Virus record (IMG/VR): IMGVR_UViG_3300005529_000023
Location: 64,001 to 128,000 of that record
Strand: one strand, 5' to 3'
Length of the DNA stretch: 64,000 nucleotides
Source: a virus
The notes below the pieces were generated by a model. The model did no database searches. It was not told where the DNA came from and saw only the letters and a list, made by a program, of their open reading frames with translations. Below are positions 5,374 to 57,652 of the stretch, piece after piece. Each line of letters begins with the position of its first letter. Position 1 is the first letter of the stretch. The translations under genes and the position numbers were made by a program.

Positions 5374-6281
5374 TACACACCGAGTTGTTTCAACAGCTTT
5401 TTGGCCGTCTTCACTTCCTCTTCATATTCAGGCTTATTCTTGTTATTTTTGATGAATTTCTTGAGAACGTGCGCCTTACGCGTAGGAGTTTTGTTGTGAA
5501 ACTCTTCCTGACGTTTTTCCCAAATGTCAGCGGTTTCCACATCGAACAGAATCTCCTCTGGAGTCATATTGTGAAGACTATCATATGGATCGATTCCGGC
5601 ACCAGTAAAATCACTTAAACTAAGGCTCTTCTGCTCAACTGGAACTGAAACGTAGTACTTACCATCGAACCTGAACACGGGTCCATCGGGTCTTACTTTC
5701 TTGCGAATCGACTTGAAGACTGCCGTATCTAGTTTCTTATATCCTAGCTTCTCATGCTTCTCGATCAGATCGCGAAGGATTGCTGGCGGCTTCTTGGTGC
5801 CAACGTAAAAGAAGAACTCTTCAGTGGGCAGACCCTTGATGTTTCGCGCCTTCTGCCTACATACTCTGACCACATCTTCCATTCTCTGCTTGAGGAATAG
5901 TGTGCAGTTCGCCCTGTTCTTATCCAGGAGTTCGCCTTCGTCTGGAGATTCGCCAAACAGTCTGTTGAACAGCTGGATGAAGTCCTGATACTTCTGCGGC
6001 ATCTTCTCTAAAGAGAATAAGCCCAAGAAGCTGACCAAATGGATATTGGCGATGTTAGTGAGATCCTCGCGCTCGAATCCGATCATGTGGAACAGATTCT
6101 TGTAGGTGAAGAAGGTGTTCTTTGCCAGGTTTGCAGCTATGTTGAGGTAGGGCTGCATCTCTTCAGAGGTAGGGTTGTAGTCTACCTTCCTGAAGTACTG
6201 ATGTCTCAAATAGCAAAGTTCGAATTCGTTTCTTGAATGGATCTTTTTCTTTTCTGCCTTGGGTCTGAAAGTCTGACTCAT
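5373..6281 (-). CDS. Hypothetical protein, possible highly divergent sigma-region-2-like transcription factor
   Basis: FEREDLTNIANIHL resembles sigma region 2.2 (DREDLIQEGNIGL); the similarity is weak. Confidence 0.35.
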   Translation of the reverse strand: MSQTFRPKAEKKKIHSRNEFELCYLRHQYFRKVDYNPTSEEMQPYLNIAANLAKNTFFTYKNLFHMIGFEREDLTNIANIHLVSFLGLFSLEKMPQKYQDFIQLFNRLFGESPDEGELLDKNRANCTLFLKQRMEDVVRVCRQKARNIKGLPTEEFFFYVGTKKPPAILRDLIEKHEKLGYKKLDTAVFKSIRKKVRPDGPVFRFDGKYYVSVPVEQKSLSLSDFTGAGIDPYDSLHNMTPEEILFDVETADIWEKRQEEFHNKTPTRKAHVLKKFIKNNKNKPEYEEEVKTAKKLLKQLGV

Positions 6282-17981: not shown

Positions 17982-18289
17982 AAGGAACCCTTTCTAATGA
18001 TCTCTTTGTAATGCCTAAGATTCGCAAGATATAGGCTGTTATCGCCATATTCTTCGGCGTCCCTTTCAAGAGCCATAATGAGAAGGTCTGTGTTCCCCTG
18101 ACATTTGAGAGCATAAAAAGCGAGTCTCACAGCGGGATTCTGCCAATCACCGATGAATTTGGTAGTGTAATTGTCTTTTTGATTACCCACCATGCAAAGA
18201 AAGGGCATATCCCTTTCGTTACACTTCTTAGCTAGATCCGCGAGTACAGGAGCAACATGCTCGTCATAGAATTGCTCATTCGGGTTCAT
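17978..18289 (-). CDS. Hypothetical protein
   Basis: Overlapping ORF in operon. Confidence 0.6.
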   Translation of the reverse strand: MNPNEQFYDEHVAPVLADLAKKCNERDMPFLCMVGNQKDNYTTKFIGDWQNPAVRLAFYALKCQGNTDLLIMALERDAEEYGDNSLYLANLRHYKEIIRKGSL

Positions 18290-18497
18290 GAAGACGAACT
18301 TTCTCTTTAGGTTGTAAAATTGATTTTCTTCCTAGGACAAGTTCTAGTCCTCCAATGAGGTAAGAAACTTCTTCATTTGTGAGATATAAAACATCCCAAT
18401 CGTGCTCATATTCAATGAGAAAATCGACACCGCTTCCATCTTCCCTTTTGGTAAGAGTGATAGCTTTGCCATCGCAGTGGATAGTGATTTTATTCAT
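18276..18497 (-). CDS. Hypothetical protein
   Basis: Overlapping ORF in operon. Confidence 0.5.
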   Translation of the reverse strand: MNKITIHCDGKAITLTKREDGSGVDFLIEYEHDWDVLYLTNEEVSYLIGGLELVLGRKSILQPKEKVRLHEPE

Positions 18498-18711
18498 TTT
18501 CTATCATGTCCTTTCTAAGCAACTTGATAGCGTCTTCGTAAATGGCATGAACCTCTTCTTCAGGGATCATCAGCAATCGCGCTATCACGCTATCTTCTAC
18601 GCCTTCAGGATTTTTTGCAACAAATTTCGATAAGGAATTAGAACATTTTGGACAACGGATGTAGTCCTCTTCCTCACGAACTCGCTTTTGCAGTTCGTCT
18701 TTGTCAGTCAT
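18490..18711 (-). CDS. Small protein resembling sigma-70 region 4.2 HTH
   Basis: SD GGAGG; VEDSVIARLLMIPEEEVHAIYEDAIKLLRK aligns by eye with [28 protein letters not shown]. Confidence 0.5.
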   Translation of the reverse strand: MTDKDELQKRVREEEDYIRCPKCSNSLSKFVAKNPEGVEDSVIARLLMIPEEEVHAIYEDAIKLLRKDMIENE

Positions 18712-19084
18712 CTTTCCTCCCGAAATTCGCATGAAGCACATTGTCGTCTCCCTTTTTGAGCTTCTCGATCTCTTCCTTGATCTTAGCTACAGATGCCTCT
18801 ACTTCAGCCTTCGCTTTATGATAGTGCGCTCTATCGTTCTGTAGAGCGGTCGCCCTTAGTCTGGTTTTCTTCAGATCTTCTTTGGCCTTCTTGTACTCCG
18901 AAGCAATGGGAATAGTGCTGCTATTTTTCAAGCACTTTAGATTTTCTTCTAGAGTGTCTTCTAAGTTGGAAAGAGTATCTAACTCTTTATCCAGGCCAAC
19001 AATAGATGAATGGACCGTATGTAGCCTGATCTCCGCGTCCTTGACGGCACGGTCCAACTTCGCCAGATCTTCTAGCCTTCCCAC
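18704..19084 (-). CDS. Coiled-coil hypothetical protein
   Basis: Heptad-rich ORF. Confidence 0.6.
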   Translation of the reverse strand: MGRLEDLAKLDRAVKDAEIRLHTVHSSIVGLDKELDTLSNLEDTLEENLKCLKNSSTIPIASEYKKAKEDLKKTRLRATALQNDRAHYHKAKAEVEASVAKIKEEIEKLKKGDDNVLHANFGRKDD

Positions 19085-19096
19085 TGATGCTCCAAG

Positions 19097-20728
19097 TTAT
19101 TTTAAACGCCATTTGCCATTGAAGGAGTTGATCATTTGTCTACATCCATTAGGGTAAGTAAGAATTGAACTATGCACCCAATCAGATGGACCTTCGTTGT
19201 AACTCAGTTTCAGGTAGCTAGACGTGCCTGCCTGCCATGCACCACGAAGGATTTCTGGAGAATGAGCATGTCCTGTATTTGACTTTCTATAGGACTTTTC
19301 CATTCCCCTAATGTTCCCACGACTACCCTTTGGCCCCTTATGGCCGTGCGCCCCATGCTGGATACCAGCGATGAAGTAGTCCTCGTCCATGGAAAGCCAA
19401 CGAATCTTGCTCTTGTTCTTCAGGCCGTACATTGTTTCCGCAGCAAACTGAAGTGGGTTGTGCCCATCTTTCATCGCCTTGGCTAAGTCTACGCCGATGG
19501 AGTAGTTGTTAGCGTCCTTAGTCCACCTACCGTGATCTAGCCAACGATCAAGAAAGAGATCGTGATTAGACTTCACAACATCGACTTCTTCCACGTTAGG
19601 GAAGTTGGAAAGCATGTCTAAGTCTTTAGTGAACTGTTTGAGTTCACTTTCCAGATTAAGCAAACCCTTCTGAGCAAGAATAGCTCTACGAATCTGTCTA
19701 TCTTCCTCGTGATGGTTGATGCTCAGGCCATTGAAACCATCGTGAATGAAGAGTCTTTTCGGTTTGACAAGATTACAGACTTCCTTCCATGCCTTTACGG
19801 CCGTAGGATCAGTCTCACCTGAGTGCCAGTCGCCCATTGTGAGGCTTTCAGCGTACATCTTCGTTACGGTATCGCCGAGATAGTAGTCGCCAAGGTCAAC
19901 GAATCCACCTTTGTCATCGGCTTGGATCTGCCTGAAGTGGTAGATATCATCATTTTCGATCTCTACAATGATAGCGCCGACAACATGGTCAAAGTTTGCT
20001 ATGTAAGCAGTTCTCTTACACATATAAGGACTGCAAATTACGTCATCATTGATGTCAAAGTACCTAGGAATAGTAGCTGCACCAGTAGTCATTTCTGCGT
20101 GAGGATTTTTGACGTTACTGACGGGCATGAACTTCAATCTTTGCTTCGGAGAAGCGTAGATGAAAGACCCATTTCCCTGACCAATACGATCCAGGCCGGT
20201 AGTGGGGTCAATTTGTTTGGCACTTAGCTCGATTGAGCACAAAAACAGATTTGAATTCAAGGCGACATCGGCAAAAACAATGGAATCAACCCCAAACTTA
20301 GGGTCCAGGTTCCAACTTCCAGCTGAGGCAGGATCTGCGCAAGGTAGAACTAGTAACTTGGCCTTCTTTTTCTCGCAGAAAGTTTGAATACTATCCAAAA
20401 ACATAGGGTGCGCGGGGCATCCAACTACGCCGGAAGTAATGACAAATCTTTTATGTTTCTTGATGCTCTGTTTGAGAGCTTCGAGGTTTTTCTCAGTGAA
20501 AATGTTGGAGTCGATGACATGGCTGAAAGCCTCGGGGTCATTGTCCGCTGCCCACTCCCGGGCCTTTTCTCTGAGTATGGTTAGATTCGAGAAATAGTGA
20601 CGAAGCTGGTCTCGACTCCAGCCTTTTCTAGATAAATCGGCTCTTCCAGGATACATGCCCGTCACTTTGACGAAGGCGATGTAGTCCTGGATAAGCTTAA
20701 TATGGTTTTCTGTTAGTTCCATAATCAT
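19097..20728 (-). CDS. Calcineurin-like metallophosphoesterase/nuclease, T5 A1-like
   Basis: GDWH, HDGFNG, SNHD, HGAHGH and GHAHSP metal-binding motifs; size (about 540 aa) and layout recall T5 A1. Confidence 0.6.
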   Translation of the reverse strand: MIMELTENHIKLIQDYIAFVKVTGMYPGRADLSRKGWSRDQLRHYFSNLTILREKAREWAADNDPEAFSHVIDSNIFTEKNLEALKQSIKKHKRFVITSGVVGCPAHPMFLDSIQTFCEKKKAKLLVLPCADPASAGSWNLDPKFGVDSIVFADVALNSNLFLCSIELSAKQIDPTTGLDRIGQGNGSFIYASPKQRLKFMPVSNVKNPHAEMTTGAATIPRYFDINDDVICSPYMCKRTAYIANFDHVVGAIIVEIENDDIYHFRQIQADDKGGFVDLGDYYLGDTVTKMYAESLTMGDWHSGETDPTAVKAWKEVCNLVKPKRLFIHDGFNGLSINHHEEDRQIRRAILAQKGLLNLESELKQFTKDLDMLSNFPNVEEVDVVKSNHDLFLDRWLDHGRWTKDANNYSIGVDLAKAMKDGHNPLQFAAETMYGLKNKSKIRWLSMDEDYFIAGIQHGAHGHKGPKGSRGNIRGMEKSYRKSNTGHAHSPEILRGAWQAGTSSYLKLSYNEGPSDWVHSSILTYPNGCRQMINSFNGKWRLK

Positions 20729-20746
20729 CCTTTGGTTATTGGATGA

Positions 20747-21346
20747 TTACTGCTGTGCAGCTGGTTGATCCGCCTGTGGAGCCTCTTGCGCGGGAGCCGG
20801 TGCGGCCTCAGCTGGGGCAGCTTCTGCGGCTGGCTGAGGAGTTTCTGCCTTCGTGATGTCGTACACTTCGGCAACCTGTAGACGATACTGCCCTTCCTGA
20901 ACTTGCGTCGTCTCGCCAACCTTGAGTCCGAGGATCTTCTCGCAAACCAAAGGATTGGTTGCCTTGAGCTGAGAGTACACGAACTGATAGCGAGGGTTGA
21001 CGATTGTTCCGTCGTCAGCGATCTCGCGAAGAACTACGAAGGAGTTGTCCGTGATCTGTTCAGCAGCGGACATGAAACCTTGGGCTACCCAATTCTTTAC
21101 CCTGTTCGACATCTCTTCGACGTTATTTTCAATCATGATCTTGCGAATCACATCGTCGTTGATTGGCTGTTCAGAGGAAGCAGCTTTTACGATCGAATTG
21201 ACCTTATTGTCGAGAACCTTCAGGATATCCTTGATGGTCATGACATCGCGAACTAGGTTATCCATCGTTTGAAACAGCGAGATAACTCCCTGTTCTAGAT
21301 CCCTGATCTTTTCAGACGCGCTACGATTATCGGTTTTATTTGACAT
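20747..21346 (-). CDS. Hypothetical protein with Ala/Pro/Gln tail
   Basis: SD AAGGAG. Confidence 0.65.
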   Translation of the reverse strand: MSNKTDNRSASEKIRDLEQGVISLFQTMDNLVRDVMTIKDILKVLDNKVNSIVKAASSEQPINDDVIRKIMIENNVEEMSNRVKNWVAQGFMSAAEQITDNSFVVLREIADDGTIVNPRYQFVYSQLKATNPLVCEKILGLKVGETTQVQEGQYRLQVAEVYDITKAETPQPAAEAAPAEAAPAPAQEAPQADQPAAQQ

Positions 21347-21360
21347 GCAATTCTCCTTGA

Positions 21361-21663
21361 TTAGTTTTCGACTTCTTCGCTACCGCGAAGGGCCTGAATT
21401 AGAGTTCTTGTTCTACCGATAGCCGCAGCTACGGAGGTACAACTTCTGTTTAGTGAGGAATCTAGTCCGCTCTTTGGTTCCAGCTTTTCGTTGGAATCCT
21501 GGTGACCATAGCCAAGAATGATGGAATCGAGCGTGTCAAGTTCATTATGTAGATCACTTAGAAAATCTTCGATTTCCTCGGCAGTTTTCATAATCGGCCT
21601 AGCCTTTGGAATTGCCGTTAAATTTTCACAGCTATTGGACTTCGGACTTACCTTATCTCTCAT
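21361..21663 (-). CDS. Hypothetical protein
   Basis: ORF; start chosen at MRDK (SD AAGGA) downstream of a TGATATAAG promoter-like motif. Confidence 0.55.
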   Translation of the reverse strand: MRDKVSPKSNSCENLTAIPKARPIMKTAEEIEDFLSDLHNELDTLDSIILGYGHQDSNEKLEPKSGLDSSLNRSCTSVAAAIGRTRTLIQALRGSEEVEN

Positions 21664-21686
21664 TTTGTTTTCCTTCATACCTTATA

Positions 21687-22718
21687 TCATCCTGGGTTTT
21701 TTGCTGGCATTGTGCTTACCTTCGCGAGAAGCGCTGCCATGCCTGGCGCCCCCTGAATCTGCGTAGCTCTCTGAATCGCCAATGCCGCTTCCTGTTCTGG
21801 CGTTGCAGGAGGAAGTGCGCTGGTCGAAGTTACTCTCTTGGTAGTGGAGCGAATTCTTTCTTGTGTTTCCTTGAGTCTCTTAGCTTGTTCTTCAGCGGAA
21901 AGCGCGTTGATTGGCTTTTCCAGAGGGACGTAACCGAGTTCTTTTTTCAGCTCATCAACTGAGACTCCCTCTTCTGCGGCAACTTGTTCGATGGTGAGAT
22001 CAAGCTGAGTTCTCTTCATGGGAGTAGCGGCCTTAGTTGGAAGCTTAGCAGCAGATGTCTTGGAGTGAAGCTGAGGCTTAGAAGCTGACTTGGGCGCCGT
22101 AGTTCCGCCAATAGGGTTGAGGGTCGTTCTCTTTGGAGCCCTAAGCACGCTAGCTACTTGATTTGCTTCGGCAGTTTCAGTCGCTCCATTAGTAGCCTTG
22201 GAGGCTAGTTTCTTTAAAATATCGACTTCTAGGTCGTTGAATGGACTGGCTACAACGGCGTGCTTTGGAGCTTCTTGTCTCATTCCGAGCATGACTTCCA
22301 TTCTCTCGCGAGCAAAACGCTTGATCTCACGCTCCACATTTTTGATGGCCCGTGCATCAGCTTCCATTCCTTCAAAGAGGCTATGGTTCATGATCATCTT
22401 GTAAAGGTTACCTTGCTCCAGACGAAGACTGGCGTCATTCAGCACCGCAGAAAAATCTTCTTCCTCATCATCGCCATCTGGGAAAAGATCTAGTTCTGGA
22501 TCACCTTCAAAAACAGCAACTTCTGGCTCAGCTGGAGCCGTAAGAGGAGTGAATCCTCGCGACTTTGGCTCTGGCCTATTAGCCGCAGGAAGTGGTGCAG
22601 TGGCCAAGGGCGGAATCAACTGCTGGGCTAGTTCCTGAACGGACTTGCTTTGCTGGACCGAAATAGCGTCTTCTGGCTTGTCCTGAAATTCTTCTTCATT
22701 GTCCCATAGATTGCTCAT
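21687..22718 (-). CDS. Hypothetical low-complexity protein
   Basis: 343-aa ORF in operon. Confidence 0.65.
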   Translation of the reverse strand: MSNLWDNEEEFQDKPEDAISVQQSKSVQELAQQLIPPLATAPLPAANRPEPKSRGFTPLTAPAEPEVAVFEGDPELDLFPDGDDEEEDFSAVLNDASLRLEQGNLYKMIMNHSLFEGMEADARAIKNVEREIKRFARERMEVMLGMRQEAPKHAVVASPFNDLEVDILKKLASKATNGATETAEANQVASVLRAPKRTTLNPIGGTTAPKSASKPQLHSKTSAAKLPTKAATPMKRTQLDLTIEQVAAEEGVSVDELKKELGYVPLEKPINALSAEEQAKRLKETQERIRSTTKRVTSTSALPPATPEQEAALAIQRATQIQGAPGMAALLAKVSTMPAKNPG

Positions 22719-23328
22719 TTTTTATCCTTCGAAGATGATAGCAGTATCCAAGCATGAGGGAATCTGCGGTATCTTCATCTTTCTTTCTCAGAGGCACGCT
22801 CAGAAACTGTCCAAACACTTCGTTTGCCCTTCGAATGTTGACGTGTTTTCTGCCGATGCGCCCGATGCGCTTGCCTTCCTCGTTATAAGCCACTTTTCCG
22901 CCGTTCTTTTCCTTATATTTCTTAACGACCTTATTATGCTTACTTTCTTCTTTGGTCATTTTGCATCCGGTCTCACGACGCCATTGTTCGGTCATGAGGT
23001 ACACGGTCTTAATACGAGTCTCTTTCACATATTGTGCCACAAGAAAGTGGATGAATTCAAGGATTTTCTGCGTATGAATCGCTTTACTTCCCGCAGAAGT
23101 CTCTTCAATCACCAAAGTATCTGGAGCATAGTGGTCAATTAATTTCACTATTTCCCTATAGCAGCTATGTGCCCAATCTACGAAATTGATGGGGTAAATA
23201 CCATCTGGCTGGTGGATCTGCGGAATCTGCCCATACATCTCCAGGTCGATACCATCCTTAGTACTGACCATTGAGGCCCAGCCGGTCTTGGTGGAGATAT
23301 CGAGTGCGAGAATGCGTTCATCGATCAT
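22696..23328 (-). CDS. ruvC: RuvC-like Holliday junction resolvase
   Basis: ILALDIST-KTG, VIEE and DEDTADS acidic motifs. Confidence 0.75.
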   Translation of the reverse strand: MIDERILALDISTKTGWASMVSTKDGIDLEMYGQIPQIHQPDGIYPINFVDWAHSCYREIVKLIDHYAPDTLVIEETSAGSKAIHTQKILEFIHFLVAQYVKETRIKTVYLMTEQWRRETGCKMTKEESKHNKVVKKYKEKNGGKVAYNEEGKRIGRIGRKHVNIRRANEVFGQFLSVPLRKKDEDTADSLMLGYCYHLRRIKNEQSMGQ

Positions 23329-23576
23329 AGGATCTGCTTCGATAGCCCCTCTATTTCCTTTTGGAGTTTGCCGATTTCTTTCTCTATGAACTCCATTTTC
23401 ATGCGAACCCTAGCGTTGTGGTGCTGCTTTTTGCGTTCGTTCCTGCGCCTTTTGAGTTCTTCAGCAATTTCTGCCGAAGTGTAGTCTTTCAGCTTTTTTA
23501 CTGGCGTACATGCGTAACAAGCCAAGTAAGCAGTGTCGGGACTTCCGCAGTTATCGCAGCGACCTACGTGTCTCAT
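23325..23576 (-). CDS. Small zinc-finger/coiled-coil protein
   Basis: CDNC...CYAC followed by a basic coil. Confidence 0.5.
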   Translation of the reverse strand: MRHVGRCDNCGSPDTAYLACYACTPVKKLKDYTSAEIAEELKRRRNERKKQHHNARVRMKMEFIEKEIGKLQKEIEGLSKQIL

Positions 23577-23797
23577 TTGTCAACATCCCACTCTTCACAG
23601 AAGTAGTGATTTAGCCCATAGGCCATCTCATTCTTCAGAAAACAGTAGGTGTTGGTAATCCTACTATTGTCCTTATAGTCGTGCTTGAACATTTGCATGC
23701 CCTGTTCCATCACGATCACATCGTAATAGTATTTTCTAGGCTGACTAGCACAGGAAAACAGTCCAAACATTAGAAATGGGATAAGGTACTTGATCAC
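23573..23797 (-). CDS. Putative lipoprotein
   Basis: Signal peptide with lipobox-like LFSC. Confidence 0.5.
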   Translation of the reverse strand: MIKYLIPFLMFGLFSCASQPRKYYYDVIVMEQGMQMFKHDYKDNSRITNTYCFLKNEMAYGLNHYFCEEWDVDK

Positions 23798-24084
23798 GCT
23801 CCACCTTTTTCTTTAATTAAAGAAACAAGGTACTTGATTCTTTTCTTGTTCTCTTTGCGAGGTTCGGTATAGACCGAGGCCAGTTCCTTCACCTCAGCCT
23901 TGGCAGCCGAAAGCTGTTCATCATTCTTTTGGTTTTCATCGTGTTCAGACTGAGCCTTTGCGATGTCACCAAGACGGCCACGAAGTTGATCGACAGAAAG
24001 TCCGACTACCTCGCCAACGAAAGCCGAATCTTCCTTTTCCATCTTCTCTTCAAACGTAAGTTTCTTTTTAGGTGCTTTAGCCAT
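23794..24084 (-). CDS. Hypothetical helical protein
   Basis: SD GGAG, ORF in operon. Confidence 0.6.
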   Translation of the reverse strand: MAKAPKKKLTFEEKMEKEDSAFVGEVVGLSVDQLRGRLGDIAKAQSEHDENQKNDEQLSAAKAEVKELASVYTEPRKENKKRIKYLVSLIKEKGGA

Positions 24085-24087
24085 GAT

Positions 24088-24423
24088 TTACTCCCTGTAG
24101 TCTATTTTCACTTGTCTTTTGAGCAAGTGCATTTTGTTCAAGTACGAAATAACAGCTTCTATCATAGCTACATGAGGCGTTTCGCTGGAATCGAGCGGTC
24201 TCTTTGAGACCTTCATCGGAAGCTTTGCCTTACTGTAGTTACTCTTGGCTGTACTCATGATATCGAACAAATCTTGTGAGTTAACGACGTGCTCTAGGCT
24301 GCTGATCTCAAAGTGCTTGTGGAAGATCATCTTTAGCCAGACAAGTCTTTCGTCCCGGCGCAGGTTAGCTTCTTTTTCCAGGTATTCCCTAAGCTCGCTA
24401 TCTAGCCTTTGCGGGTCACTCAT
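24088..24423 (-). CDS. Hypothetical protein
   Basis: SD AGGAG, ORF in operon. Confidence 0.6.
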   Translation of the reverse strand: MSDPQRLDSELREYLEKEANLRRDERLVWLKMIFHKHFEISSLEHVVNSQDLFDIMSTAKSNYSKAKLPMKVSKRPLDSSETPHVAMIEAVISYLNKMHLLKRQVKIDYRE

Positions 24424-24431
24424 GCACGCTC

Positions 24432-26492
24432 CTATGCTGCCTGTACAATTCTACTTGTGGCGCCTTCTCTCACAACCACGAGTCTACTTCCGACCATCTG
24501 CTTTACCTCTGGATTGTGGTCTACAATGATCAGCTTTTTGCTGACATTGGAGTTCTTAAGAACTTCGAGTGCCATTTCAATACACACAGTATCCAGCCCA
24601 GTGAAGGGTTCGTCAAGAATAAAAATGCCTATTCCCTTATTTGACTTATTTTCGATAAGGTCGATGACAGCTAGATCCACGGCTAAATCAGTCGCAGAAC
24701 GTTCGCCGCCACACAAACTCTTGATAGGGATGTTCTCGTCTCCATCCAAGTGAATTACGGCATTGACCTCTTCCTTGACTTTGCCTTCTTTGGTCTCCTT
24801 CAATCCTTCAAGCTGGATTGTCGCATTCGCCATGTTGGGAACTTTCCGAATCATGGTCGTTGCACTGTTGCCAATGTCTTCCAGAGCCTCATCAAAAGAA
24901 CGGGACAGGTGACTCTTTAGGGCCTTCTTTAGCTCTTCTGCCTTCTCCAATTCCTTGACTATTGTAGTCAGGACATCGGAAAATCCATCGACCTTGGCAG
25001 CGTGTCCTATTTCCTGCTCTTGGAGGCGTTTTAACATCGACTCATAGTTCTTGAGAGCGGTATCGTAGGCTTTTAGCTTTGATACGGCAGCATCCAAGGC
25101 CCTGCGATCCACTTCTGCCTGTCCGCGAGCTTGATCGGACAGAGAAGCGTGCTTATCCCTCAAAGCTTTCTGTCGAAATGCAAAGTCATCCTGCCAGGTC
25201 TTGTTCAGATGGTGGATGGCATTGGCTTTGTCGGTCTCATTCTGCTTTTCCTGGGCGATCTTCCTGATGAGTTCAACCTCATACTTCTGCATGTGATCAT
25301 ATCCTACGGGAACAAATGGCTTAGCTTGCACTGTAAGTAAGCCCAGTTCGCTAGTCTCGCTTGCAAGCTGTGCAGCCGCTTCATCTCCTGCCTGAATGAT
25401 CTCTTTGAATTTGGCAATTTTCTCAAGAAGGACAGTTTCTTCTGCCTTGGCCCCTTCAGTTGCCCAACTCTGAAGGCAGGTATGGCAAATGTTCTCTCTG
25501 AGTTTCTTGATTTTTAGCGCCGAAGCAGCCGCCTCAGGCTTGACATAGTCACGTTGCCTGACTTTTTCAGCCAAGGAGGACATTTTGAGCTTGAGGGCGG
25601 TGATTTGAGCGTTGATCTTAGACTGCCTATCCTTCTCTTCGAGCATGAGTTGACCCATTTGCGCTCGTAATTGGGTCAGATTCTGCTCCAATTGTGCTCT
25701 AGTTGAGGTATCCACCACAGTTGATTGTGGCTGAGGACGTTGAAGATCGAAAGCTTCTGCTTCAATTCTTTGTTGAGCCAAAATCATCGTGAGGGCGGCA
25801 CTAGAGGTGTCAGCTTTATTCTTGAGTTGGAGTACTACTTCTTGGTGCATATCTCTGACGGGAGCCAATCCCAACCCTAGAATGGCGTCCTGGGTCGTTT
25901 TTACAGCAACACGAGCGCTGTTCAATGAAGTAGTAGCCAGTTCTTTCTTTTCCGTTAGCTCTTTGATCTTGGCATCTAGCACTTCTAGGTCTTTTTTGTG
26001 CTTCGACAGGCCAAGACAATCTGTTAGGAAGTCATTCATTTCCTTTGGTGTGAGAGAAAGAAAGAAACCGCCTTCTTTTTGTCTTTTGTGAAGGATTTTT
26101 CTGAAAAGATCGCGTGGCATTGCTAAAATCTCATCTAGTTTCTCTTCCGAGATCTTACTACTTCCCCTGGTCTCTACACCGTCGAGTTCGATGGCGAGTT
26201 TTCCCTTGTTGCGCGAGATTTTAAGAGCCTTGCCATTGTAATCGAATAGGCCAGAGACAGAAATGGGGTCTTTTGAGACGCGAGACTGTAAAACTGTATT
26301 GGGGATGTCGTTCAGGCCAAGAAGATAGTCTAGGGCATGAAAAACAGTACTTTTACCGGCGCCACTTGAGCCACCAGTGTTCCTGTTCTCCCCGTCTACC
26401 TGAACTAGGTCGCCAAGACTCTCAAAATTGATCACCTGTTCATCAACAAAGCGACCAATTCCAGAGAAACGCAACTCTTTCGGATCAATCAT
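24432..26492 (-). CDS. sbcC: SbcC/Rad50/gp46-like recombination ATPase
   Basis: Walker A GSSGAGKST, long coiled coil with CHTC zinc hook, LCGGE signature, ILDEPF, DH. Confidence 0.9.
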   Translation of the reverse strand: MIDPKELRFSGIGRFVDEQVINFESLGDLVQVDGENRNTGGSSGAGKSTVFHALDYLLGLNDIPNTVLQSRVSKDPISVSGLFDYNGKALKISRNKGKLAIELDGVETRGSSKISEEKLDEILAMPRDLFRKILHKRQKEGGFFLSLTPKEMNDFLTDCLGLSKHKKDLEVLDAKIKELTEKKELATTSLNSARVAVKTTQDAILGLGLAPVRDMHQEVVLQLKNKADTSSAALTMILAQQRIEAEAFDLQRPQPQSTVVDTSTRAQLEQNLTQLRAQMGQLMLEEKDRQSKINAQITALKLKMSSLAEKVRQRDYVKPEAAASALKIKKLRENICHTCLQSWATEGAKAEETVLLEKIAKFKEIIQAGDEAAAQLASETSELGLLTVQAKPFVPVGYDHMQKYEVELIRKIAQEKQNETDKANAIHHLNKTWQDDFAFRQKALRDKHASLSDQARGQAEVDRRALDAAVSKLKAYDTALKNYESMLKRLQEQEIGHAAKVDGFSDVLTTIVKELEKAEELKKALKSHLSRSFDEALEDIGNSATTMIRKVPNMANATIQLEGLKETKEGKVKEEVNAVIHLDGDENIPIKSLCGGERSATDLAVDLAVIDLIENKSNKGIGIFILDEPFTGLDTVCIEMALEVLKNSNVSKKLIIVDHNPEVKQMVGSRLVVVREGATSRIVQAA

Positions 26493-26815
26493 TTCCCAGG
26501 CTCCAGATTCTTCTCATGCCAGCCGCCCTTACCGTCAGATTCTTCGTACTTGACGTTGCCACGAATGATCTCTTTCTGCAGAGCCATCCAAGATTGAAAC
26601 TCTTTCGTCTCAGTCATTCTTTTGAACGCCTTCTTTTTGTTAGCGAGCTGATCGCGTTCTTCCCTCGACTCACCTACGGCACCGCTAGCTTCGTGGACGA
26701 TGCGAACTCCAGAGTTCACCTTGTTCTGATTCTGACCACCTTTGCCACCCGAGCGGAAGGTGTCTATTCTGAGGTCTTTAGCTGTGATGCTAAAGACAAG
26801 TTTACGTTTCTTCAC
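26489..26815 (-). CDS. RF-1 domain peptidyl-tRNA hydrolase (ArfB/PrfH-like)
   Basis: RSGGKGGQNQNKVNSGVRIVH with GGQ motif; ERDQLANK; GTGA overlap start. Confidence 0.88.
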   Translation of the reverse strand: MKKRKLVFSITAKDLRIDTFRSGGKGGQNQNKVNSGVRIVHEASGAVGESREERDQLANKKKAFKRMTETKEFQSWMALQKEIIRGNVKYEESDGKGGWHEKNLEPGK

Positions 26816-27129
26816 TTGTTGCCGTCCCAAATGATGCCAGCATAGAAGCTGCCACGTTTCAGATACTTTTCTTCTCTGAGTCTTTCGAGTTCGTGGTCTT
26901 TGATGTTGAAGTTCATCTTGAGCGCTCGAATGACTTCTAGGACATCAGCCAACTCTTCGTATAGCTCAAGTGTGTTCCTTGCATTCTTGGCTTCTGTAGC
27001 CTCTTCAACAAGCTTATCGAGCATGAATCTAAGGAGTTCGTTACCCTTGGCGATCCTATATTTCATAGGCGTCCTAAGAGGATCTTCGGCGCAAATCTTG
27101 GGCATATGGTCTCTGACCAATTTTTCCAT
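26812..27129 (-). CDS. MazG-like / phosphoribosyl-ATP pyrophosphohydrolase family protein
   Basis: KLVRD, KLVEEA-E and EELADVLEV all-alpha NTP-PPase motifs. Confidence 0.8.
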   Translation of the reverse strand: MEKLVRDHMPKICAEDPLRTPMKYRIAKGNELLRFMLDKLVEEATEAKNARNTLELYEELADVLEVIRALKMNFNIKDHELERLREEKYLKRGSFYAGIIWDGNK

Positions 27130-27377
27130 TAGCTATCCTTAAAATCTTTTGTGGATCTATTTTTGATATCTTCGATAACGTCCAAGTTCACTTCTACCGC
27201 TCGTGCCTGTACTCCGTTATCGACCTTAATTATAGACTGAGACGAAGGAGCCTTCAACATTCTTTTCGCGTTTTTTCCGCATTTTTCGCATGAAAAAAAG
27301 GCAGGCGCTTGCGACGCCTGCCTGAAAAACTTACTCACCGAATTCTTGCATTCGCAAAGGTAATAGATGAGTGGCAC
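27129..27377 (-). CDS. FmdB-like zinc-ribbon protein
   Basis: MP-x-Y-Y-x-C-x-C...C-x2-C. Confidence 0.6.
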   Translation of the reverse strand: MPLIYYLCECKNSVSKFFRQASQAPAFFSCEKCGKNAKRMLKAPSSQSIIKVDNGVQARAVEVNLDVIEDIKNRSTKDFKDS

Positions 27378-27383
27378 AGTAAA

Positions 27384-28262
27384 TTACCAGTACATAGGAA
27401 CAACTTGCTTCTGCTTGTTGTCGAACTGTTCCTTGAACTTTTTGATCATATCTACTTTTTGTTCGCTGGTGTAAATTACCTTACCCTCTGGAGCAACAAT
27501 TTTGATGTTCATTGGACTCGTATTAAGAGGGCAATTGTCGAGATCGTAATGAATCTCAACTCCAAAGAAATCGATTGAATGGGTCGTAGCGCCAGCAAGC
27601 GTTTCATCGCACTTCACAAGAACTACGCGATCAGCATAGCCTTCAGTGACAGCCTGGGTGCCAGTAAGCCACATCTCATCTGCGTACTCTTTCTGATAAC
27701 TCTGTAGTGTTTGCTTACCCTTAGTTCTCTTAACCGTCTGCTGATCAAGTTCGGTGAGACGAGACATCCAAAGCTTGTATCTGCTCTCGATCTGACTTGG
27801 CGATGGTCCACCGAATGCACCAACAAACTCACCAGCCGCTCTATGGCTCATCAAGACACCGTTCTTAAGAACGAGACGATCGCCAAGGTTCTGCGCAATT
27901 TGGAATCCCATGCTTGCAGCAAATAGAGTAACAGTGTGAATAGAACGACCAAGGCCGTTAAGGGCTTCAATCATCTCAAGGCCAGACTGAATGCTTCCGC
28001 CTGGCGTGTTAAGGAAAAGATAAAGAGGCTTCTTCTCGCCCTTGATCTTGGACTTCAGGGTATTGAGTCCCCTATCCAGTTCCTTGGCGTTGGCAATGAT
28101 CTTACCAACACTTGCGCCGTCAACTTCTTCATTCAGAACTAAGGTGTTATCCTTAGAAAGTACAACGGTTTCAGTCTTCTCTTCGCTGTCGGTCGATTTA
28201 GATGGCGTCGCCGCAGCGATCAAAAACGCCAATAGTACTACTAGTACCCTATTTAGTTTCAT
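27384..28262 (-). CDS. ClpP/crotonase-fold serine protease with N-terminal signal peptide
   Basis: LFLNTPGGS, AASMG (Ser), MSH (His), WLTGTQAVTEGYAD; hydrophobic leader MKLNRVLVVLLAFLIAAA. Confidence 0.8.
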   Translation of the reverse strand: MKLNRVLVVLLAFLIAAATPSKSTDSEEKTETVVLSKDNTLVLNEEVDGASVGKIIANAKELDRGLNTLKSKIKGEKKPLYLFLNTPGGSIQSGLEMIEALNGLGRSIHTVTLFAASMGFQIAQNLGDRLVLKNGVLMSHRAAGEFVGAFGGPSPSQIESRYKLWMSRLTELDQQTVKRTKGKQTLQSYQKEYADEMWLTGTQAVTEGYADRVVLVKCDETLAGATTHSIDFFGVEIHYDLDNCPLNTSPMNIKIVAPEGKVIYTSEQKVDMIKKFKEQFDNKQKQVVPMYW

Positions 28263-28947
28263 TGTTAGAATCTCCTTCGTCTTGGTCTATATCACTACTC
28301 TTCTTCGCTTTTGCCTGGCTCTCCGCTTCGCGCCTCATATCGGCAAACTGTTTCAACTTTGAATTGATAGCGGAATCTTTTGGGGTAATAGTGAGTTTGT
28401 TTTCCCCAGTCTTTTCAATGGTTACGCCGTCGCCTACATTGAGGCCGACAGCAGGAGACTTAGAAGATTTGCCGGGATCTTTGCCAAGATCATTGACGTG
28501 TTCAATCGCCTTTATGATCTGAGCAAGTTCCTTCATATCCAGGTCCATGTGTTCTTCATCACCCGTAGCTAGATATTGAGTCAGCTTATTGCCAACCTTT
28601 TTCTGACTTGCCTGAAGCAACAACAGCATGAAGTTTTGATTCATTACCTTGGCTTCAGCGATTCTGCTTTTGATTGTATGCTGGAGTTCGGTCAAGTACT
28701 CTTTCTTAGTCAAGAACCAATCGAACTTATGTGCCAGATACAGGACCAAATTCTTCTTAATACGCAAAGCATTTGAGATCTGCGAGTAGGTGCTACCAGA
28801 AAGGTACATGTCCATCATTCTGTACAATGACTTGTCGTCTACGGACTCAAGGCCCGGCATCCCTTCAGTAACGTATTCTTGTACGCGCTCTAACTCTAGA
28901 GCCGTCATATCTGTTGGTTTTTCTGGAACTGGTAGATTATCTGACAT
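28249..28947 (-). CDS. Hypothetical HTH-containing protein (terminase small subunit-like possible)
   Basis: TYSQISNALRIKKNLV HTH-like segment followed by helices; function inferred only. Confidence 0.4.
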   Translation of the reverse strand: MSDNLPVPEKPTDMTALELERVQEYVTEGMPGLESVDDKSLYRMMDMYLSGSTYSQISNALRIKKNLVLYLAHKFDWFLTKKEYLTELQHTIKSRIAEAKVMNQNFMLLLLQASQKKVGNKLTQYLATGDEEHMDLDMKELAQIIKAIEHVNDLGKDPGKSSKSPAVGLNVGDGVTIEKTGENKLTITPKDSAINSKLKQFADMRREAESQAKAKKSSDIDQDEGDSNNETK

Positions 28948-29287
28948 CTTTGCTCTCGTATTTTTTTTCGTCGTTAATGTAGACTTCTACTTTTACATCT
29001 CGCCAAAAAAGATTTCTAACCGCCGCTTCTAGAGCCTGAAATCTCTTCTCCATGTTTTCTCCTTCAACAGGGCCTGTGAAGCGATAGCAAACACGCGAAC
29101 CGTGTTGAACTTCTTTCTTAGCTTCATTAACGGCATGACCAAAATCGTAATCGATGGAAGCGCTCTTGATGTTGTCAAAGAACACAAAAGGAAACTTTCT
29201 AAGATTTTCTGCGTGAAAATCGCTGATCCTATTTGCCAAGACTGCCAGCTGCGCTCTTTCTTTTAGTTTCTGTTTTAGATCAGACAA
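28937..29287 (-). CDS. Hypothetical protein
   Basis: Overlapping ORF in operon. Confidence 0.6.
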   Translation of the reverse strand: MSDLKQKLKERAQLAVLANRISDFHAENLRKFPFVFFDNIKSASIDYDFGHAVNEAKKEVQHGSRVCYRFTGPVEGENMEKRFQALEAAVRNLFWRDVKVEVYINDEKKYESKDVR

Positions 29288-30263
29288 TTCCCAACTCCTT
29301 TGCGTATCGAACCAACTCGTCCTTGTCCATTTTGGTCACGTACAAGTTGCGCAGAAAATCCTCAAACCCCTTAGCGGCCTGCCTCTTCTCTGTTTTCTTG
29401 GTGTCGGTGATCTTGGTCTTGATTGCACACTTTCCCTTCAGAGCTAACTTCTGCTTAGATACCCAATCCGAAGATCCAACGAGTTCTATGGCTACCCTTG
29501 CCCCCTCAGGGAAATTTGGAATTTCTTCTCCTTCTCCAACGCTAAATTGGAGAATAGGACTACAGACCCCTTCGGTGGAGATGTACTCCTCAGAAATGAT
29601 TTCCCCTGTGGAGTCGCTATGAACGTAAATTGTAAGGCCCTTAGGTTGATTAGCATCGGCTGTGGTATCCCAACGGGGAGTACCTGGATATTTGACTCGT
29701 CCGAACTCCTGCCTGGAATGGATGTGACCGGAAATGACGTGGATAAATTGCGGGGATAAAAGAGAGACATCAATTCCATCGGGGGTGTACATTCCGCTTT
29801 CATACTTACTTCCTTTGAAAGTTTGATGACAGACAAGAACCTTGGCCAATCCAGATAATGAATTGACAACATCTACAAATCTCGCTGAATCATGGATGTA
29901 TGGTACATAGAGAAATTGGCCATTAATAGTGGGTATATTCACAATCTTCAAGTTTTTCTTGCTATCCTCAATCCATTGGAAGACATCGAGAGCAGAGGCA
30001 GAGGAGCTATAATCGCCCGTTTGATCATGGTTTCCCACGAGAACTACTACCTCACAGACATTTGCTAGCTCAATCAGCGCTTCTTCCCAAAACCTAAGAA
30101 CTTCTAGCCTAATGATCGAATGGGTATGAAACAAGTCCCCTAGAATCTCGATCCTATCCACTTTGTGCTCAACAGCAAGCCAAACGATGAACTTCAGCAG
30201 TTTCTCGCTTTCCTTGATGTTGTTCACTTTGACGTGAGGATCGCCGACGCGTAGGATTTTCAT
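29280..30263 (-). CDS. sbcD: SbcD/Mre11/gp47-like nuclease
   Basis: GDPH, GDLFH, GNHD, HQ and GHIH phosphoesterase motifs. Confidence 0.9.
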   Translation of the reverse strand: MKILRVGDPHVKVNNIKESEKLLKFIVWLAVEHKVDRIEILGDLFHTHSIIRLEVLRFWEEALIELANVCEVVVLVGNHDQTGDYSSSASALDVFQWIEDSKKNLKIVNIPTINGQFLYVPYIHDSARFVDVVNSLSGLAKVLVCHQTFKGSKYESGMYTPDGIDVSLLSPQFIHVISGHIHSRQEFGRVKYPGTPRWDTTADANQPKGLTIYVHSDSTGEIISEEYISTEGVCSPILQFSVGEGEEIPNFPEGARVAIELVGSSDWVSKQKLALKGKCAIKTKITDTKKTEKRQAAKGFEDFLRNLYVTKMDKDELVRYAKELGIV

Positions 30264-30265
30264 CT

Positions 30266-30403
30266 TTATCCTAGTTCATGGTCCAGCGTAAGTAGCGCAA
30301 TGTACATGAAGAAACCAGCTAGAACGCTATGCTGCCAAAATCCAAAGAGAGTCGCTCCGGTTGCAATTCTGATCCATACTGCTAATGCTTTAGTGAGATC
30401 CAT
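30266..30403 (-). CDS. Small membrane protein (45 aa, MDLTKALAVW...), not in ORF track
   Basis: Translated by hand; hydrophobic; abuts both neighbours. Confidence 0.6.
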   Translation of the reverse strand: MDLTKALAVWIRIATGATLFGFWQHSVLAGFFMYIALLTLDHELG

Positions 30404-30404
30404 C

Positions 30405-30563
30405 TTATTTTTCCTTTTTGAGAGTTCCACAGAATGCACAATTGTCGTGCGGTTTTCCGTGAAGCAAAGTTACAAACCAACGATTGTACTTTGGCATGAT
30501 CCACTTGGTGAATTCCCAAATCGCGATGCTGCCAACAAACTGAACTATACCTGTGTCAGTCAT
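30405..30563 (-). CDS. Small membrane protein (52 aa, MTDTGIVQFV...), not in ORF track
   Basis: ATGA overlap with upstream gene; TM-like N-terminus and CxxC. Confidence 0.6.
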   Translation of the reverse strand: MTDTGIVQFVGSIAIWEFTKWIMPKYNRWFVTLLHGKPHDNCAFCGTLKKEK

Positions 30564-30898
30564 GCGGCCTCATCTGGCGGCGGAGAAAGGAACTCTACGA
30601 ATTGCATATCTACGATCAAGAAAGGACAAGGAAGAGTCTCACACTCAAGAGCTTTTTGTGCCCATGCTTGTGTATGAAGGCTTTCTTCTCTGATGTACGC
30701 AGTAGAACCCTTGCGTACGTAGAGTCCGAATCTAGTTCCGTCGTCTAGTCTAGTATCGACTAGAACCTTAAGTCCCTTAAGAGCTAGCTTTTGAGAAACG
30801 AATGCAAAGCCATTCTTCTCGGTAGCACGAAGCCCCTCTTTTTTGTACGCCTCAACGATAAGACGATTGTTCATCGAAAGTGGAAAGTCTAAAGTCAT
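30560..30898 (-). CDS. groES: Divergent GroES/Cpn10-like co-chaperonin
   Basis: NNRLIVE matches HDRVIV; the mobile loop ATEKNGFAFV matches TKSAGGIVL; VRKGSTAYI matches VKVGDIVIF; FLIVDMQFV matches VLIMSESDI. GroEL lies 2.6 kb away. Confidence 0.6.
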   Translation of the reverse strand: MTLDFPLSMNNRLIVEAYKKEGLRATEKNGFAFVSQKLALKGLKVLVDTRLDDGTRFGLYVRKGSTAYIREESLHTQAWAQKALECETLPCPFLIVDMQFVEFLSPPPDEAA

Positions 30899-31926
30899 AA
30901 TTTGATTCCTTTCAATTGTAGCACTTTTTTATGAAGTATTGGAAGCCTCTTTGCGAGAGAAAGCATTTGCTCTGTAGCTTCTTTCTCCATGTATGCTTCT
31001 TCTATATCTTGGGTAGTGTCAGGAGTGAAATGGTAAACACCATAACCCTCGTCGTTCACAGTAGCATCGGCAGATACCGTACTAGACGCATTCATTAATG
31101 CACTAAGTTGGCTAACAGTGACCTTCTCTTTTGGTATGCTTTTGCCTTCTTCTGCGTCCTTTTTGAAACTTTCGTTGATCGCCTTAGTCAGTTCCTTGAT
31201 GTCCTCAATTCCTTGGCGCGCACGAATCGTATGAGCCTTATAGAGAATTCTCTTATCAGAAGGATAGAAGTGCAACATCGTCTCACTGTAGCTGTCGATC
31301 ATATTGCCGACCATTCGACCGATGCAAACCGATCGGAAAACCGGAGAATATTCACCAGACCACTTATCTACGCCAGCCGCTAAGCCAAGACCGCAGATAC
31401 CGATAAAATCCATCAAGGTCAGATGACTCTTTGGAGTTTTGCGATAGAACAGTTTGGCCCGGTTGATAGCTAGGGGCATGTTGTTCTCGATCAGGATAGT
31501 GCGTGCTTTGTGGACTCGCTGAAATAGTTGTTCGGCGCGCTTTGGGAATGGGCCTAACCACGCATCGCGGATGAATTTGATGAACTGATAGTTGATATCG
31601 AAACGTTTCAGAGTTTCTACGTCGCGCACTTTGATTGCAGGTGTAATATGCTTACTGAAGGAAGTAGCGATCTCTCTGAAATAAGGACGCGCGCTCAAAA
31701 TGTTTTTGTTTTGAATACAAACCTTCTGGAGGAATTTTTTGTAGATCTCAGTCGATTGACGATACTTCAAAATAGTTTCTTTGAATTTACGTTCCGCATC
31801 CAAAAGTTCTTCGACCTGTTCCTTCTGAAGGGAACCGTCCCTGTTCTTTTCTAGAGCCTTGGTAACTTCACCAGCTAATCTGTAAAACGAGTCGTCAAAC
31901 GCTTCCTGGCGTTTTGTTTTTTGCAT
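30895..31926 (-). CDS. Phage RNA polymerase sigma-70-family factor lacking region 4.2
   Basis: NNMPLAINRAKLF...MDFIGICGLGLAAGVDKW (regions 2.1-2.2); ends at LPILHKKVLQLKGIKL (region 4.1). Confidence 0.85.
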   Translation of the reverse strand: MQKTKRQEAFDDSFYRLAGEVTKALEKNRDGSLQKEQVEELLDAERKFKETILKYRQSTEIYKKFLQKVCIQNKNILSARPYFREIATSFSKHITPAIKVRDVETLKRFDINYQFIKFIRDAWLGPFPKRAEQLFQRVHKARTILIENNMPLAINRAKLFYRKTPKSHLTLMDFIGICGLGLAAGVDKWSGEYSPVFRSVCIGRMVGNMIDSYSETMLHFYPSDKRILYKAHTIRARQGIEDIKELTKAINESFKKDAEEGKSIPKEKVTVSQLSALMNASSTVSADATVNDEGYGVYHFTPDTTQDIEEAYMEKEATEQMLSLAKRLPILHKKVLQLKGIKL

Positions 31927-33452: not shown

Positions 33453-33492
33453 GCCCCTAGAATATCACAACTAGCGAACTATGTGATATAGC
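33453..33492. promoter_or_regulatory. Back-to-back divergent extended -10 promoters (helicase and groEL)
   Basis: Inverted TATCACA-N12-TGTGATA; minus strand TG-A-TATTCT-6nt-ATG; plus strand TG-A-TATAGC followed by SD GGAGG. Confidence 0.55.
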
Positions 33493-33518
33493 CAGTTAGA
33501 GAAAATTGGAGGATAACA

Positions 33519-35318: not shown

Positions 35319-35324
35319 AATCTT
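35319..35324 (+). promoter_or_regulatory. Candidate late promoter AATCTT
   Basis: Hexamer 7 nt before ATG 35332, at the head of the terminase operon. Confidence 0.4.
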
Positions 35325-35331
35325 AATGATT

Positions 35332-37561: not shown

Positions 37562-37567
37562 AATCTT
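37562..37567 (+). promoter_or_regulatory. Candidate late promoter AATCTT
   Basis: 8 nt before the GIY-YIG ATG; part of a 10-bp direct repeat. Confidence 0.4.
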
Positions 37568-37575
37568 TAACCTAT

Positions 37576-53743: not shown

Positions 53744-53749
53744 AATCTT
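53744..53749 (+). promoter_or_regulatory. Candidate late promoter AATCTT for endolysin
   Basis: In the divergent intergenic gap upstream of the M15 peptidase. Confidence 0.35.
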
Positions 53750-53786
53750 TAAGTATAGGATAGAGCAAATAAGGAAATAAGACAAT

Positions 53787-57635: not shown

Positions 57636-57652
57636 ATAATCTCCTATATGGG

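Follow-up and report, generated by a model that had tools for sequence, protein, structure and literature searches.

A sigma70-family protein lacking the -35-reading helix-turn-helix and an acidic sigma4.2-like mini-protein in soil phages related to Myxococcus phage Mx1

Based on profile alignment, structure prediction and comparison with related phages we found that a 64,000-nt stretch of phage DNA (the window) encodes a real, strongly diverged member of the sigma70 family that ends before the helix-turn-helix (HTH) of region 4.2, and that a region 4.2-like piece is kept in the same phages as a separate acidic gene. The joint explanation that we favour, with a probability of about one half, is that the truncated sigma would be a late, -10-type factor and that the acidic mini-protein would act on the polymerase through protein contacts at its sigma4 site. 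The sigma and its C-terminal end are located as follows:

30895 to 31926, minus strand: sigma70-family protein, 343 aa, with regions 1.2, 2, 3 and 4.1 only and without the region 4.2 HTH
30898 to 31011, minus strand: residues 306-343 of the sigma, a C-terminal helical hairpin corresponding to sigma4 helices 1-2 (region 4.1)

The family profile of the sigma, made from 52 diverse homologues, matched primary sigma factors in the PDB from region 2 onward (E about 8e-9); profile positions 130-343 aligned with RpoD 370-562 of 613, and the alignment stopped in region 4.1. Region 2 was also matched by TIGR02997 (E 2.6e-5). The AF2 model (pLDDT 89) matched sigma A across about 340 columns, all of its top 50 Foldseek matches were primary sigma factors (sigma A/sigma70), and regions 3 and 4.1 were found in order by profile alignment, hhalign and the model alike. 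Residues 306-342 aligned to sigma4 columns 5-44 (hhalign score 28.5, P 6.8e-4), with helices predicted at 308-326 and 330-338 (pLDDT >90 in AF2), and the hairpin closes with a conserved K-V-L-x-L-K-G motif; K334 is invariant in the family alignment and L328 and G340 are nearly so. The chain stops after helix 2 of domain 4, and the HTH for the -35 element is missing. By profile and predicted fold the protein is thus homologous to the canonical sigma70 family (sigma A, sigma70, groups 1-3) over regions 1.2 to 4.1, but the region 4.2 HTH of that family is absent from the whole phage family, and a Pfam scan of the protein gave no match, with PF04542 (Sigma70_r2) missing even region 2.

The original prediction of a sigma with region 2 that is cut before the -35-reading HTH was therefore borne out by the profile, the AF2 model and the shared end of the relatives. 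The relatives form 401 clusters at 50% identity, nearly all of about 345 aa, and in the best 150 of the 401 clusters the proteins end at the same position, as does the ortholog in Mx1. Because the stop is conserved in this way, a sequencing frameshift at about 30900 or a read-through that restores region 4.2 was excluded. In-frame read-through past the stop meets a TAG after two codons, and PF04545 (Sigma70_r4) gave no signal downstream of the sigma in any frame. None of the relatives carried a Sigma70_r4 domain, and inteins are present in the long ones (590-820 aa). No description of this sigma or of the mini-protein was found in the literature, the genome announcement of Mx1 being silent on both, and megablast of the region against the phage collection gave no match.

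The gene directly after the sigma was considered as a source of the missing HTH:

30560 to 30898, minus strand: conserved beta-rich protein, 112 aa, not an HTH, with an ATGA overlap that couples it translationally to the sigma gene

The search for related loci, run with 12 sequences, gave 55 ORFs of this family from 73 loci, located directly downstream of the sigma and overlapping it by 4 nt in most cases. The family is conserved and beta-rich and has no HTH, and the candidate was ruled out. The 112-aa protein had no match in Pfam or the Atlas, and its family profile found nothing in the PDB at E <=10. For Cpn10, PF00166 matched nothing in the genome, and the Atlas model of the 112-aa protein is of low confidence.

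The sigma is encoded in a long replication/recombination (early/middle) gene block, and its chain would appear to stop after region 4.1 by design. It would retain regions 1.2, 2 and 3, for core-polymerase binding and the reading of a -10-type element, together with the region 4.1 hairpin, having lost the -35-reading HTH; in normal sigma factors this two-helix hairpin lies against the beta-flap tip. Most likely, such a factor would redirect the host polymerase to the late genes of the phage, for which we found a candidate promoter consisting of a single box, (C)AATCTTWA. Three of its sites are:

35319 to 35326, plus strand: candidate late promoter with a single element, the AATCTTAA box, which precedes the first gene of the terminase operon by 30 nt
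37562 to 37569, plus strand: AATCTTTA box preceding a homing-endonuclease gene by 6 nt
53744 to 53751, plus strand: AATCTTTA box preceding the endolysin gene by 35 nt

Eighteen of the 20 box sites are on the plus strand, and 15 lie 4-50 nt upstream of plus-strand starts, including those of baseplate, fibre, terminase and endolysin genes. The same box showed a strand bias in the genomes G001, G007 and G011, and in G007 each of the 14 sites precedes an ORF start by 4-58 nt. In raw count the box occurs as often as chance predicts; only its placement is non-random, and the box was found by examining upstream regions. No -35 box was seen, as there were no conserved positions upstream of the (C)AATCTTWA sites.

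In T4, late transcription depends on the sigma2-only factor gp55, the acidic beta-flap-binding co-activator gp33 and the gp45 clamp. The analogy with T4 that had been drawn from the sequence fits a single-box candidate late promoter without a -35 box, and in both cases a phage sigma lacks the -35-reading domain. One (C)AATCTTWA box about 20-40 nt before the start codon of late genes would follow a gp55-like logic. However, gp55 is a 185-aa sigma2 remnant, whereas the sigma described here is a full sigma70-type chain of 343 aa with regions 1.2, 2, 3 and 4.1.

Another protein could take the place of the truncated sigma at the late box, leaving the latter to serve a different class such as the middle genes:

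5373 to 6281, minus strand: core protein of the clade, 302 aa, with sigma2-like identity as a weak lead

We regard a gp55-like role for this 302-aa protein as doubtful. Mx1 and all 17 relatives have it, and 18 of its 30 nearest ESM Atlas clusters are in the set carrying Sigma70_r2, but the feature overlap is low (122/256), and in the listed 185-aa phage cluster Sigma70_r2 occurs in 21% of the members. A region 2.1-2.2 and 2.4-like pattern can be seen by eye. Against this, Pfam, PHROGs, the PDB profile search and hhalign gave nothing sigma2-like, and hhalign showed no relation between this family and the sigma family. The suggestion that it is a second, divergent sigma2-like protein was thus not upheld beyond the Atlas lead.

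The second component of the favoured explanation is encoded 12 kb from the sigma:

18490 to 18711, minus strand: acidic mini-protein, 73 aa, comprising an N-terminal helix, a conserved loop and, at residues 29-70, an HTH of the sigma region 4.2 type

The correct start codon of this ORF is the ATG at 18711, preceded by GGAGG at a distance of 5 nt, and 101 homologues were found. Residues 29-70 of the family aligned over 41 columns with sigma4 columns 38-78, which is the region 4.2 HTH (hhalign Prob 70.6, P 3.9e-5, score 29.1); the mean score of 100 column shuffles was 9.5 (sd 1.9, max 15.7). Other HTH families used as controls reached a Prob of 31 (GerE), 2.2 (HTH_3) and 1.2 (HTH_8), and judged from these alignments the HTH appears specifically closest to sigma4.2, above the LuxR, Cro and Fis types. 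The best PDB profile match was region 4.2 of a sigma factor (E 0.79). The direct check with Sigma70_r4 that had been proposed for this ORF stayed under the Pfam threshold (PF04545 score 11.2 against a cut-off of 24.1 bits). Weak PF04545 matches occurred in 7 of 33 family members (best E 0.013), six-frame scans matched the mini-protein in only 1 of 17 relatives, and no Sigma70_r4 above the cut-off was found in this phage or the 17 relatives. A PF04545 match at 57603-57701 of the window was noise, crossing the stop of a PRPP-synthetase-like gene. Searches of the mini-protein directly against Pfam, PHROGs (cut-off E 0.01) and NCBIfam gave nothing significant. A zinc ribbon was rejected for lack of a conserved CxxC, the second Cys being frequently replaced by F, L, M or Y and the first missing from distant members.

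In the sigma4 register the mini-protein begins about where the sigma stops, so that the two families, with columns 5-44 and 38-78, together cover domain 4 and share about 7 columns. The mini-protein had been proposed as the missing part of the sigma, and of this claim the sigma4.2 likeness and the starting point stood. As a plain missing half it fits less well, having its own helix-2 equivalent, an extra N-terminal helix and a conserved loop; the most conserved motif, D-Y-I-R-x-P-K-x-x-N-S-L, is this loop and lies outside the HTH. The AF2 model (pLDDT 84) is a compact, self-contained domain. Foldseek of the model against the PDB was not significant, with E of at least 0.13 across the structure searches. 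About 20 of the top 50 rows among the VIA matches were sigma4 domains (rmsd about 2 over 41 residues), weak matches with a best Z of 3.5, and among the likewise weak BFVD matches ranks 2, 4 and 8 were phage sigma or region-4 proteins.

In all 33 members the "recognition" helix has an acidic N-terminal half (net charge -1 to -5), and the pI of the whole protein is 4.4-5.1 in 26 of the 33. A basic or polar recognition helix for the -35 major groove is therefore absent from the family, and its acidity would make the mini-protein a poor DNA binder. Given the acidic helix and the lack of a -35 box, it is unlikely that the mini-protein reads a -35 element. More likely, we infer, it is a sigma4-type module that acts on RNA polymerase via protein contacts: rather than reading DNA, it would probably work at the sigma4 site, where it could complete or cap domain 4 of the truncated sigma on the beta-flap or else serve as a decoy on the flap. 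From the original choice between a two-piece sigma and a sigma4 mimic, a mimic, co-activator or decoy that does not read DNA is hence favoured over a -35-reading second half.

These features also bear on a true two-piece sigma, in which the mini-protein would dock on the region 4.1 hairpin, rebuild domain 4 and be obligatory for the holoenzyme, maybe with a contact to upstream DNA. The tiling with little overlap would suit such an arrangement, as would the conserved hydrophobic positions of mini-protein helices 3-4, the absence of any other sigma4 found in these phages and strict co-occurrence in 18 of 18 genomes of one clade. We nevertheless hold it to be quite improbable in view of the acidic helix, the lack of a visible -35 box and a mini-protein that, besides folding by itself in AF2, already has an equivalent of helix 2 and an N-terminal helix. 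The genes are separated by 12-32 kb and were in no case adjacent or fused (a search for longer or fused forms of the mini-protein found none, which is weak evidence), and the sigma is translationally coupled to another protein instead.

The genomes compared belong to soil phages related to Mx1. The mini-protein gene is present as a single copy in 17 of 17 near-complete related genomes and in Mx1. The co-occurrence with the sigma that had been suggested as a check was thus found in every genome, but as a sign of partnership it is confounded by the shared ancestry of two core genes of one clade. Both genes lie within one co-directional replication block. The mini-protein gene belongs to an operon of small ORFs, overlapping by 8 nt at each end, and lies between a metallophosphatase-like gene and the genes for RNase H and DNA polymerase III alpha, and in Mx1 it is directly upstream of polymerase III alpha. 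These surroundings would agree with a mini-protein functionally unrelated to the sigma, such as a small HTH-fold regulator, a replication or repair adaptor, or an inhibitor of host sigma A. This reading also gains from the weakness of the structural matches and from small HTH domains being widespread. We consider this a less probable reading, though one to be taken seriously, as the HTH resembles sigma4.2 specifically and not the LuxR, Cro or Fis types, and an acidic protein would bind DNA poorly.

The favoured explanation, a late -10-type sigma with a mini-protein at the sigma4 site, has partial parallels. Like T4 gp33, the mini-protein is a separately encoded small acidic protein that by analogy could occupy the sigma4 site on the beta-flap, but its likeness is to sigma4.2 itself, and no similarity to gp33 was detected (no PHROG match at E <=0.01). 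SigO and RsoA of Bacillus subtilis form a two-subunit sigma in which the small subunit supplies the region-2 function and the large one keeps domain 4. This is a precedent for sigma function divided between two polypeptides; in our phages, in contrast, the break would fall inside domain 4, and the partnership is hypothetical. Among viral structures, those most similar to the mini-protein model (prob 0.99 and 0.66, rmsd 2.0-2.2) were stand-alone "sigma-70 region 4" proteins of uncultured phages, A0A6J5KXK5 (115 aa) and A0A6J5N2N3 (54 aa) in BFVD, which are equally small and free-standing; with Foldseek E of only 0.18-2.6, the likeness would be structural, as judged from the models. For phiEco32, a holoenzyme of the gp36 sigma is reported to be stabilised by the small phage protein gp79, which also displaces domain 4 of the host sigma and binds the clamp and RNA channel (PMC12276001). 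As described there, gp79 is likewise a small phage protein beside a phage sigma, but not a sigma4-like HTH.

One more specific model, which we offer tentatively and would not expect to hold in full, is a split sigma70 factor of the Mx1-like soil phage clade. In it a sigma with regions 1.2-4.1 and an acidic, sigma4.2-derived subunit would place domain 4 on the beta-flap, where it would anchor the factor and repel upstream DNA, giving an obligate -10-only holoenzyme.

To our knowledge, the main example of a sigma factor without a -35 reader is T4 gp55, a protein reduced to a point where its kinship with sigma70 is hard to see. The family described here is an intermediate, a clear sigma70-type chain cut precisely inside domain 4 and found in hundreds of clusters from phages of 150-177 kb, with the sigma4.2-like piece kept as a separate acidic gene in the same phages. 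Mx1 can be cultivated on Myxococcus xanthus, so the idea of a split sigma is directly testable. Even if the mini-protein is unrelated, the sigma would represent a new -35-independent family with a compact candidate promoter. Should the two proteins act jointly, they would be the first case of a sigma divided within domain 4, and they would show how late machinery of the T4 type, a sigma with a flap-binding co-activator, could evolve from an ordinary sigma factor.

Sequence profiles and structure prediction both indicate that the protein proposed as the large piece of a split sigma factor is a genuine but diverged member of the sigma70 family, and that it is truncated. Its gene and the one directly after it are as follows.

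30895–31926, minus strand: sigma, 343 aa
30560–30898, minus strand: downstream ORF, joined to the sigma stop codon by an ATGA overlap

Searches of the sigma protein against Pfam and PHROGs gave no match, nor did a six-frame scan of the whole genome with Pfam Sigma70_r2. NCBIfam returned weak sigma matches, and their alignments ended before the models did (ECF, 2–129 of 165; SigB/F/G, 3–189 of 227). A family profile built from 52 diverse homologues matched the primary sigma factors of Thermus and E. coli in the PDB (E ~8e-9), with profile positions 130–343 corresponding to residues 370–562 of the 613 in RpoD and the region 4.1 motif as the final aligned block. The AF2 model of sigma was confident (pLDDT 89.4) and ended in a disordered linker (282–307) followed by helices at 308–326 and 330–338. 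With this model, the best 50 Foldseek matches were all sigma A/sigma70 chains (probability 1.00).

The source record, an IMG/VR virus of 176,870 bp in which the window spans bases 64001–128000, was judged complete, and Myxococcus phage Mx1 (169.6 kb) is its sole relative among deposited phages. In metagenomes, where relatives are numerous, sigma had 999 matches at the 90% clustering level and relatives in 401 clusters at 50% identity. We found 73 related IMG/VR loci; 17 of these lie on contigs of 149–176 kb with a completeness of 91% or more. Among the best 150 of the 401 clusters, nearly all sigma relatives are 330–365 aa long and their alignments reach the final residues; the Mx1 ortholog (WNM70309; 34% identity) has the same end point. 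The longer family members (590–820 aa) owe their extra length to inteins and carry no additional sigma domains. As relatives and the Mx1 ortholog stop at the same place and the long members are explained by inteins, a sequencing error was excluded as the cause of the truncation, and the end before region 4.2 that was originally read from this single sequence is a family trait. The inteins were seen in the homologues P0280, P0303, P0323 and P0369 (outside the window) as Hint domains, with LAGLIDADG in one, inserted either around region 2.4, at query residue 214/215, or at ~181. Mx1 also keeps the gene order helicase, sigma, small ORF, phosphoesterase. A divergently oriented GroEL-type chaperonin gene (33519–35291, plus strand; PHROG E 8e-83) adjoins the helicase–sigma block, as it does in Mx1.

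A homologue of the downstream ORF occupies the same position at almost every related locus. The family is conserved, 100–150 aa long and beta-rich, so the ORF was rejected as the missing HTH; the family had no match in the PDB (profile search), Pfam, Cpn10 or the ESM Atlas. Because of its tight coupling to sigma, the downstream ORF is a candidate sigma partner.

The second proposed piece, the mini-protein, lies in a tightly coupled operon of small ORFs.

18490–18711, minus strand: mini-protein, 73 aa, start at 18711
18276–19084, minus strand: small-ORF operon

Its start was placed by aligning the family and by a GGAGG box that precedes it by 5 nt. Upstream the gene overlaps a 126-aa coiled-coil ORF and downstream another ORF of 73 aa, in each case by 8 nt. 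The operon sits within a replication and recombination block with SbcCD-like, RuvC-like, RNase H, exonuclease and DNA polymerase III alpha genes, plus sigma. In Mx1 the homologue (OR576727.2, 157479–157679, minus strand) carries no annotation and immediately precedes polymerase III alpha. The AF2 model is compact, with four helices (3–13, 27–33, 40–47, 51–71; pLDDT 84). A CxxC in the mini-protein is not conserved in the family alignment.

The support from each single tool for a sigma4 identity of the mini-protein was weak but consistent. Its best PDB profile match was region 4.2 of a sigma factor (E 0.79). PF04545 scored 11.2 bits, the second-highest score in the genome, and matched 7 of 33 family members (best E 0.013); in six-frame scans of the relatives only 1 of 17 gave a score. 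A further weak PF04545 match, crossing the stop codon of a PRPP-synthetase-like gene (57653–58432, minus strand), was discarded as noise. GerE matched one of the 33 members scanned (E 7.8e-4). Foldseek of the model against the PDB gave nothing significant, and VIA-align reached Z values of at most 3.5, although sigma4 domains, aligned to residues 31–73 at ~2 Å, made up about 20 of the 50 best rows. A BFVD search placed phage sigma or region-4 proteins at ranks 2, 4 and 8.

The by-eye alignment of the mini-protein to the sigma region was borne out by hhalign, in which the family was compared with alignments of E. coli K-12 sigma4 (six sigmas), GerE, HTH_3 and HTH_8.

Table. hhalign comparison of the mini-protein family with HTH templates
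Sigma4 (columns 38–78): Prob 70.6; P 3.9e-5; score 29.1; 41 columns
GerE: Prob 31; P 5.2e-4; score 22.7; 19 columns
HTH_3: Prob 2.2; P 0.021; score 15.5; 23 columns
HTH_8: Prob 1.2; P 0.046; score 13.8; 9 columns

As controls, 100 column shuffles scored 9.5 on average (sd 1.9, max 15.7) and the reversed alignment 9.5. Residues 29–70 of the mini-protein matched sigma4 columns 38–78, from RpoD R-F-G through the recognition helix, while sigma family residues 306–342 matched columns 5–44 (score 28.5, P 6.8e-4). The two families therefore tile domain 4, with an overlap of about seven columns.

The split-sigma interpretation is partly supported: both parts are present and in register, but the smaller one looks like a self-contained, non-DNA-binding sigma4-type module. 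Besides an N-terminal helix it carries an equivalent of helix 2 (conserved N-S-L-x-K-F), and its predicted structure is that of an independent domain. Conservation is strongest in a loop that lies outside the HTH. The proteins are acidic (pI 4.4–5.1 in 26/33 members), and in all 33 the "recognition" helix has a net charge of −1 to −5 over its N-terminal half; the corresponding sigma4.2 segment touches the −35 major groove. A search for longer or fused forms gave none, which is weak evidence. The sigma and mini-protein genes are 12–32 kb apart. Both the mini-protein gene and ORF 5373–6281, a core gene, are single-copy in all 17 near-complete relatives and Mx1, so co-occurrence shows core-gene status only. 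A literature search found no paper describing this sigma or the mini-protein.

5373–6281, minus strand: ORF proposed as a second sigma2-like protein

This sigma2-like assignment stays a lead. In its favour are region 2.1–2.2 and 2.4-like patterns seen by eye in the alignment, and the ESM Atlas, where 18 of the 30 nearest clusters fall in a set carrying Sigma70_r2 (in one listed phage cluster of 185 aa, 21% of members have it). No signal came from Pfam, PHROGs, a profile search of the PDB or an hhalign comparison with the sigma family. Distant orthologues lie in far longer open frames, L116:1177-2796 in G017 and L110:952-2448 in G009 (both related metagenomic phage genomes), the former with a C-terminal extension containing several CxxC pairs; these frames may be fusions or ORF-calling artefacts.

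Additionally, we searched 84 upstream gaps for enriched motifs. One, (TGT)GATATA(T), at 33470–33520 and in other gaps, resembles an extended −10 element and is possibly a signal for early or middle promoters used by the host sigma; its distance from the AATCTT box is variable. The other, AATCTTWA, has 20 sites in the genome, about the chance count, with non-random placement: 18 of 20 are on the plus strand and 15 lie 4–50 nt upstream of plus-strand gene starts.

35319, plus strand: (C)AATCTTWA box
37562, plus strand: (C)AATCTTWA box
53744, plus strand: (C)AATCTTWA box

Like these three, twelve more plus-strand sites elsewhere in the genome lie 4–50 nt before late or structural genes. Among the genes that follow the boxes are the terminase operon and those for an endolysin, a tail fibre and a baseplate wedge protein. 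Apart from a preference for C at −1, no position from −60 to −1 relative to the box carried information, and a −35 box is therefore absent. Among the related metagenomic genomes, CAATCTTWA was biased to the strand opposite to the sigma gene in G001 (9:1), G007 (12:2) and G011 (6:0), with reversed-pattern controls of 2:1, 1:0 and 3:3; G013 and G017, the genomes furthest removed, showed no strand bias. In G007 all 14 sites lie 4–58 nt before a start codon whose ORF is 60 aa or longer.

(C)AATCTTWA fits a candidate single-element late promoter, which we infer would be read by a sigma without region 4.2. By ancestry the large protein belongs to the ordinary sigma70 family, as a truncated member; in logic the nearest known system is T4 gp55 with gp33.
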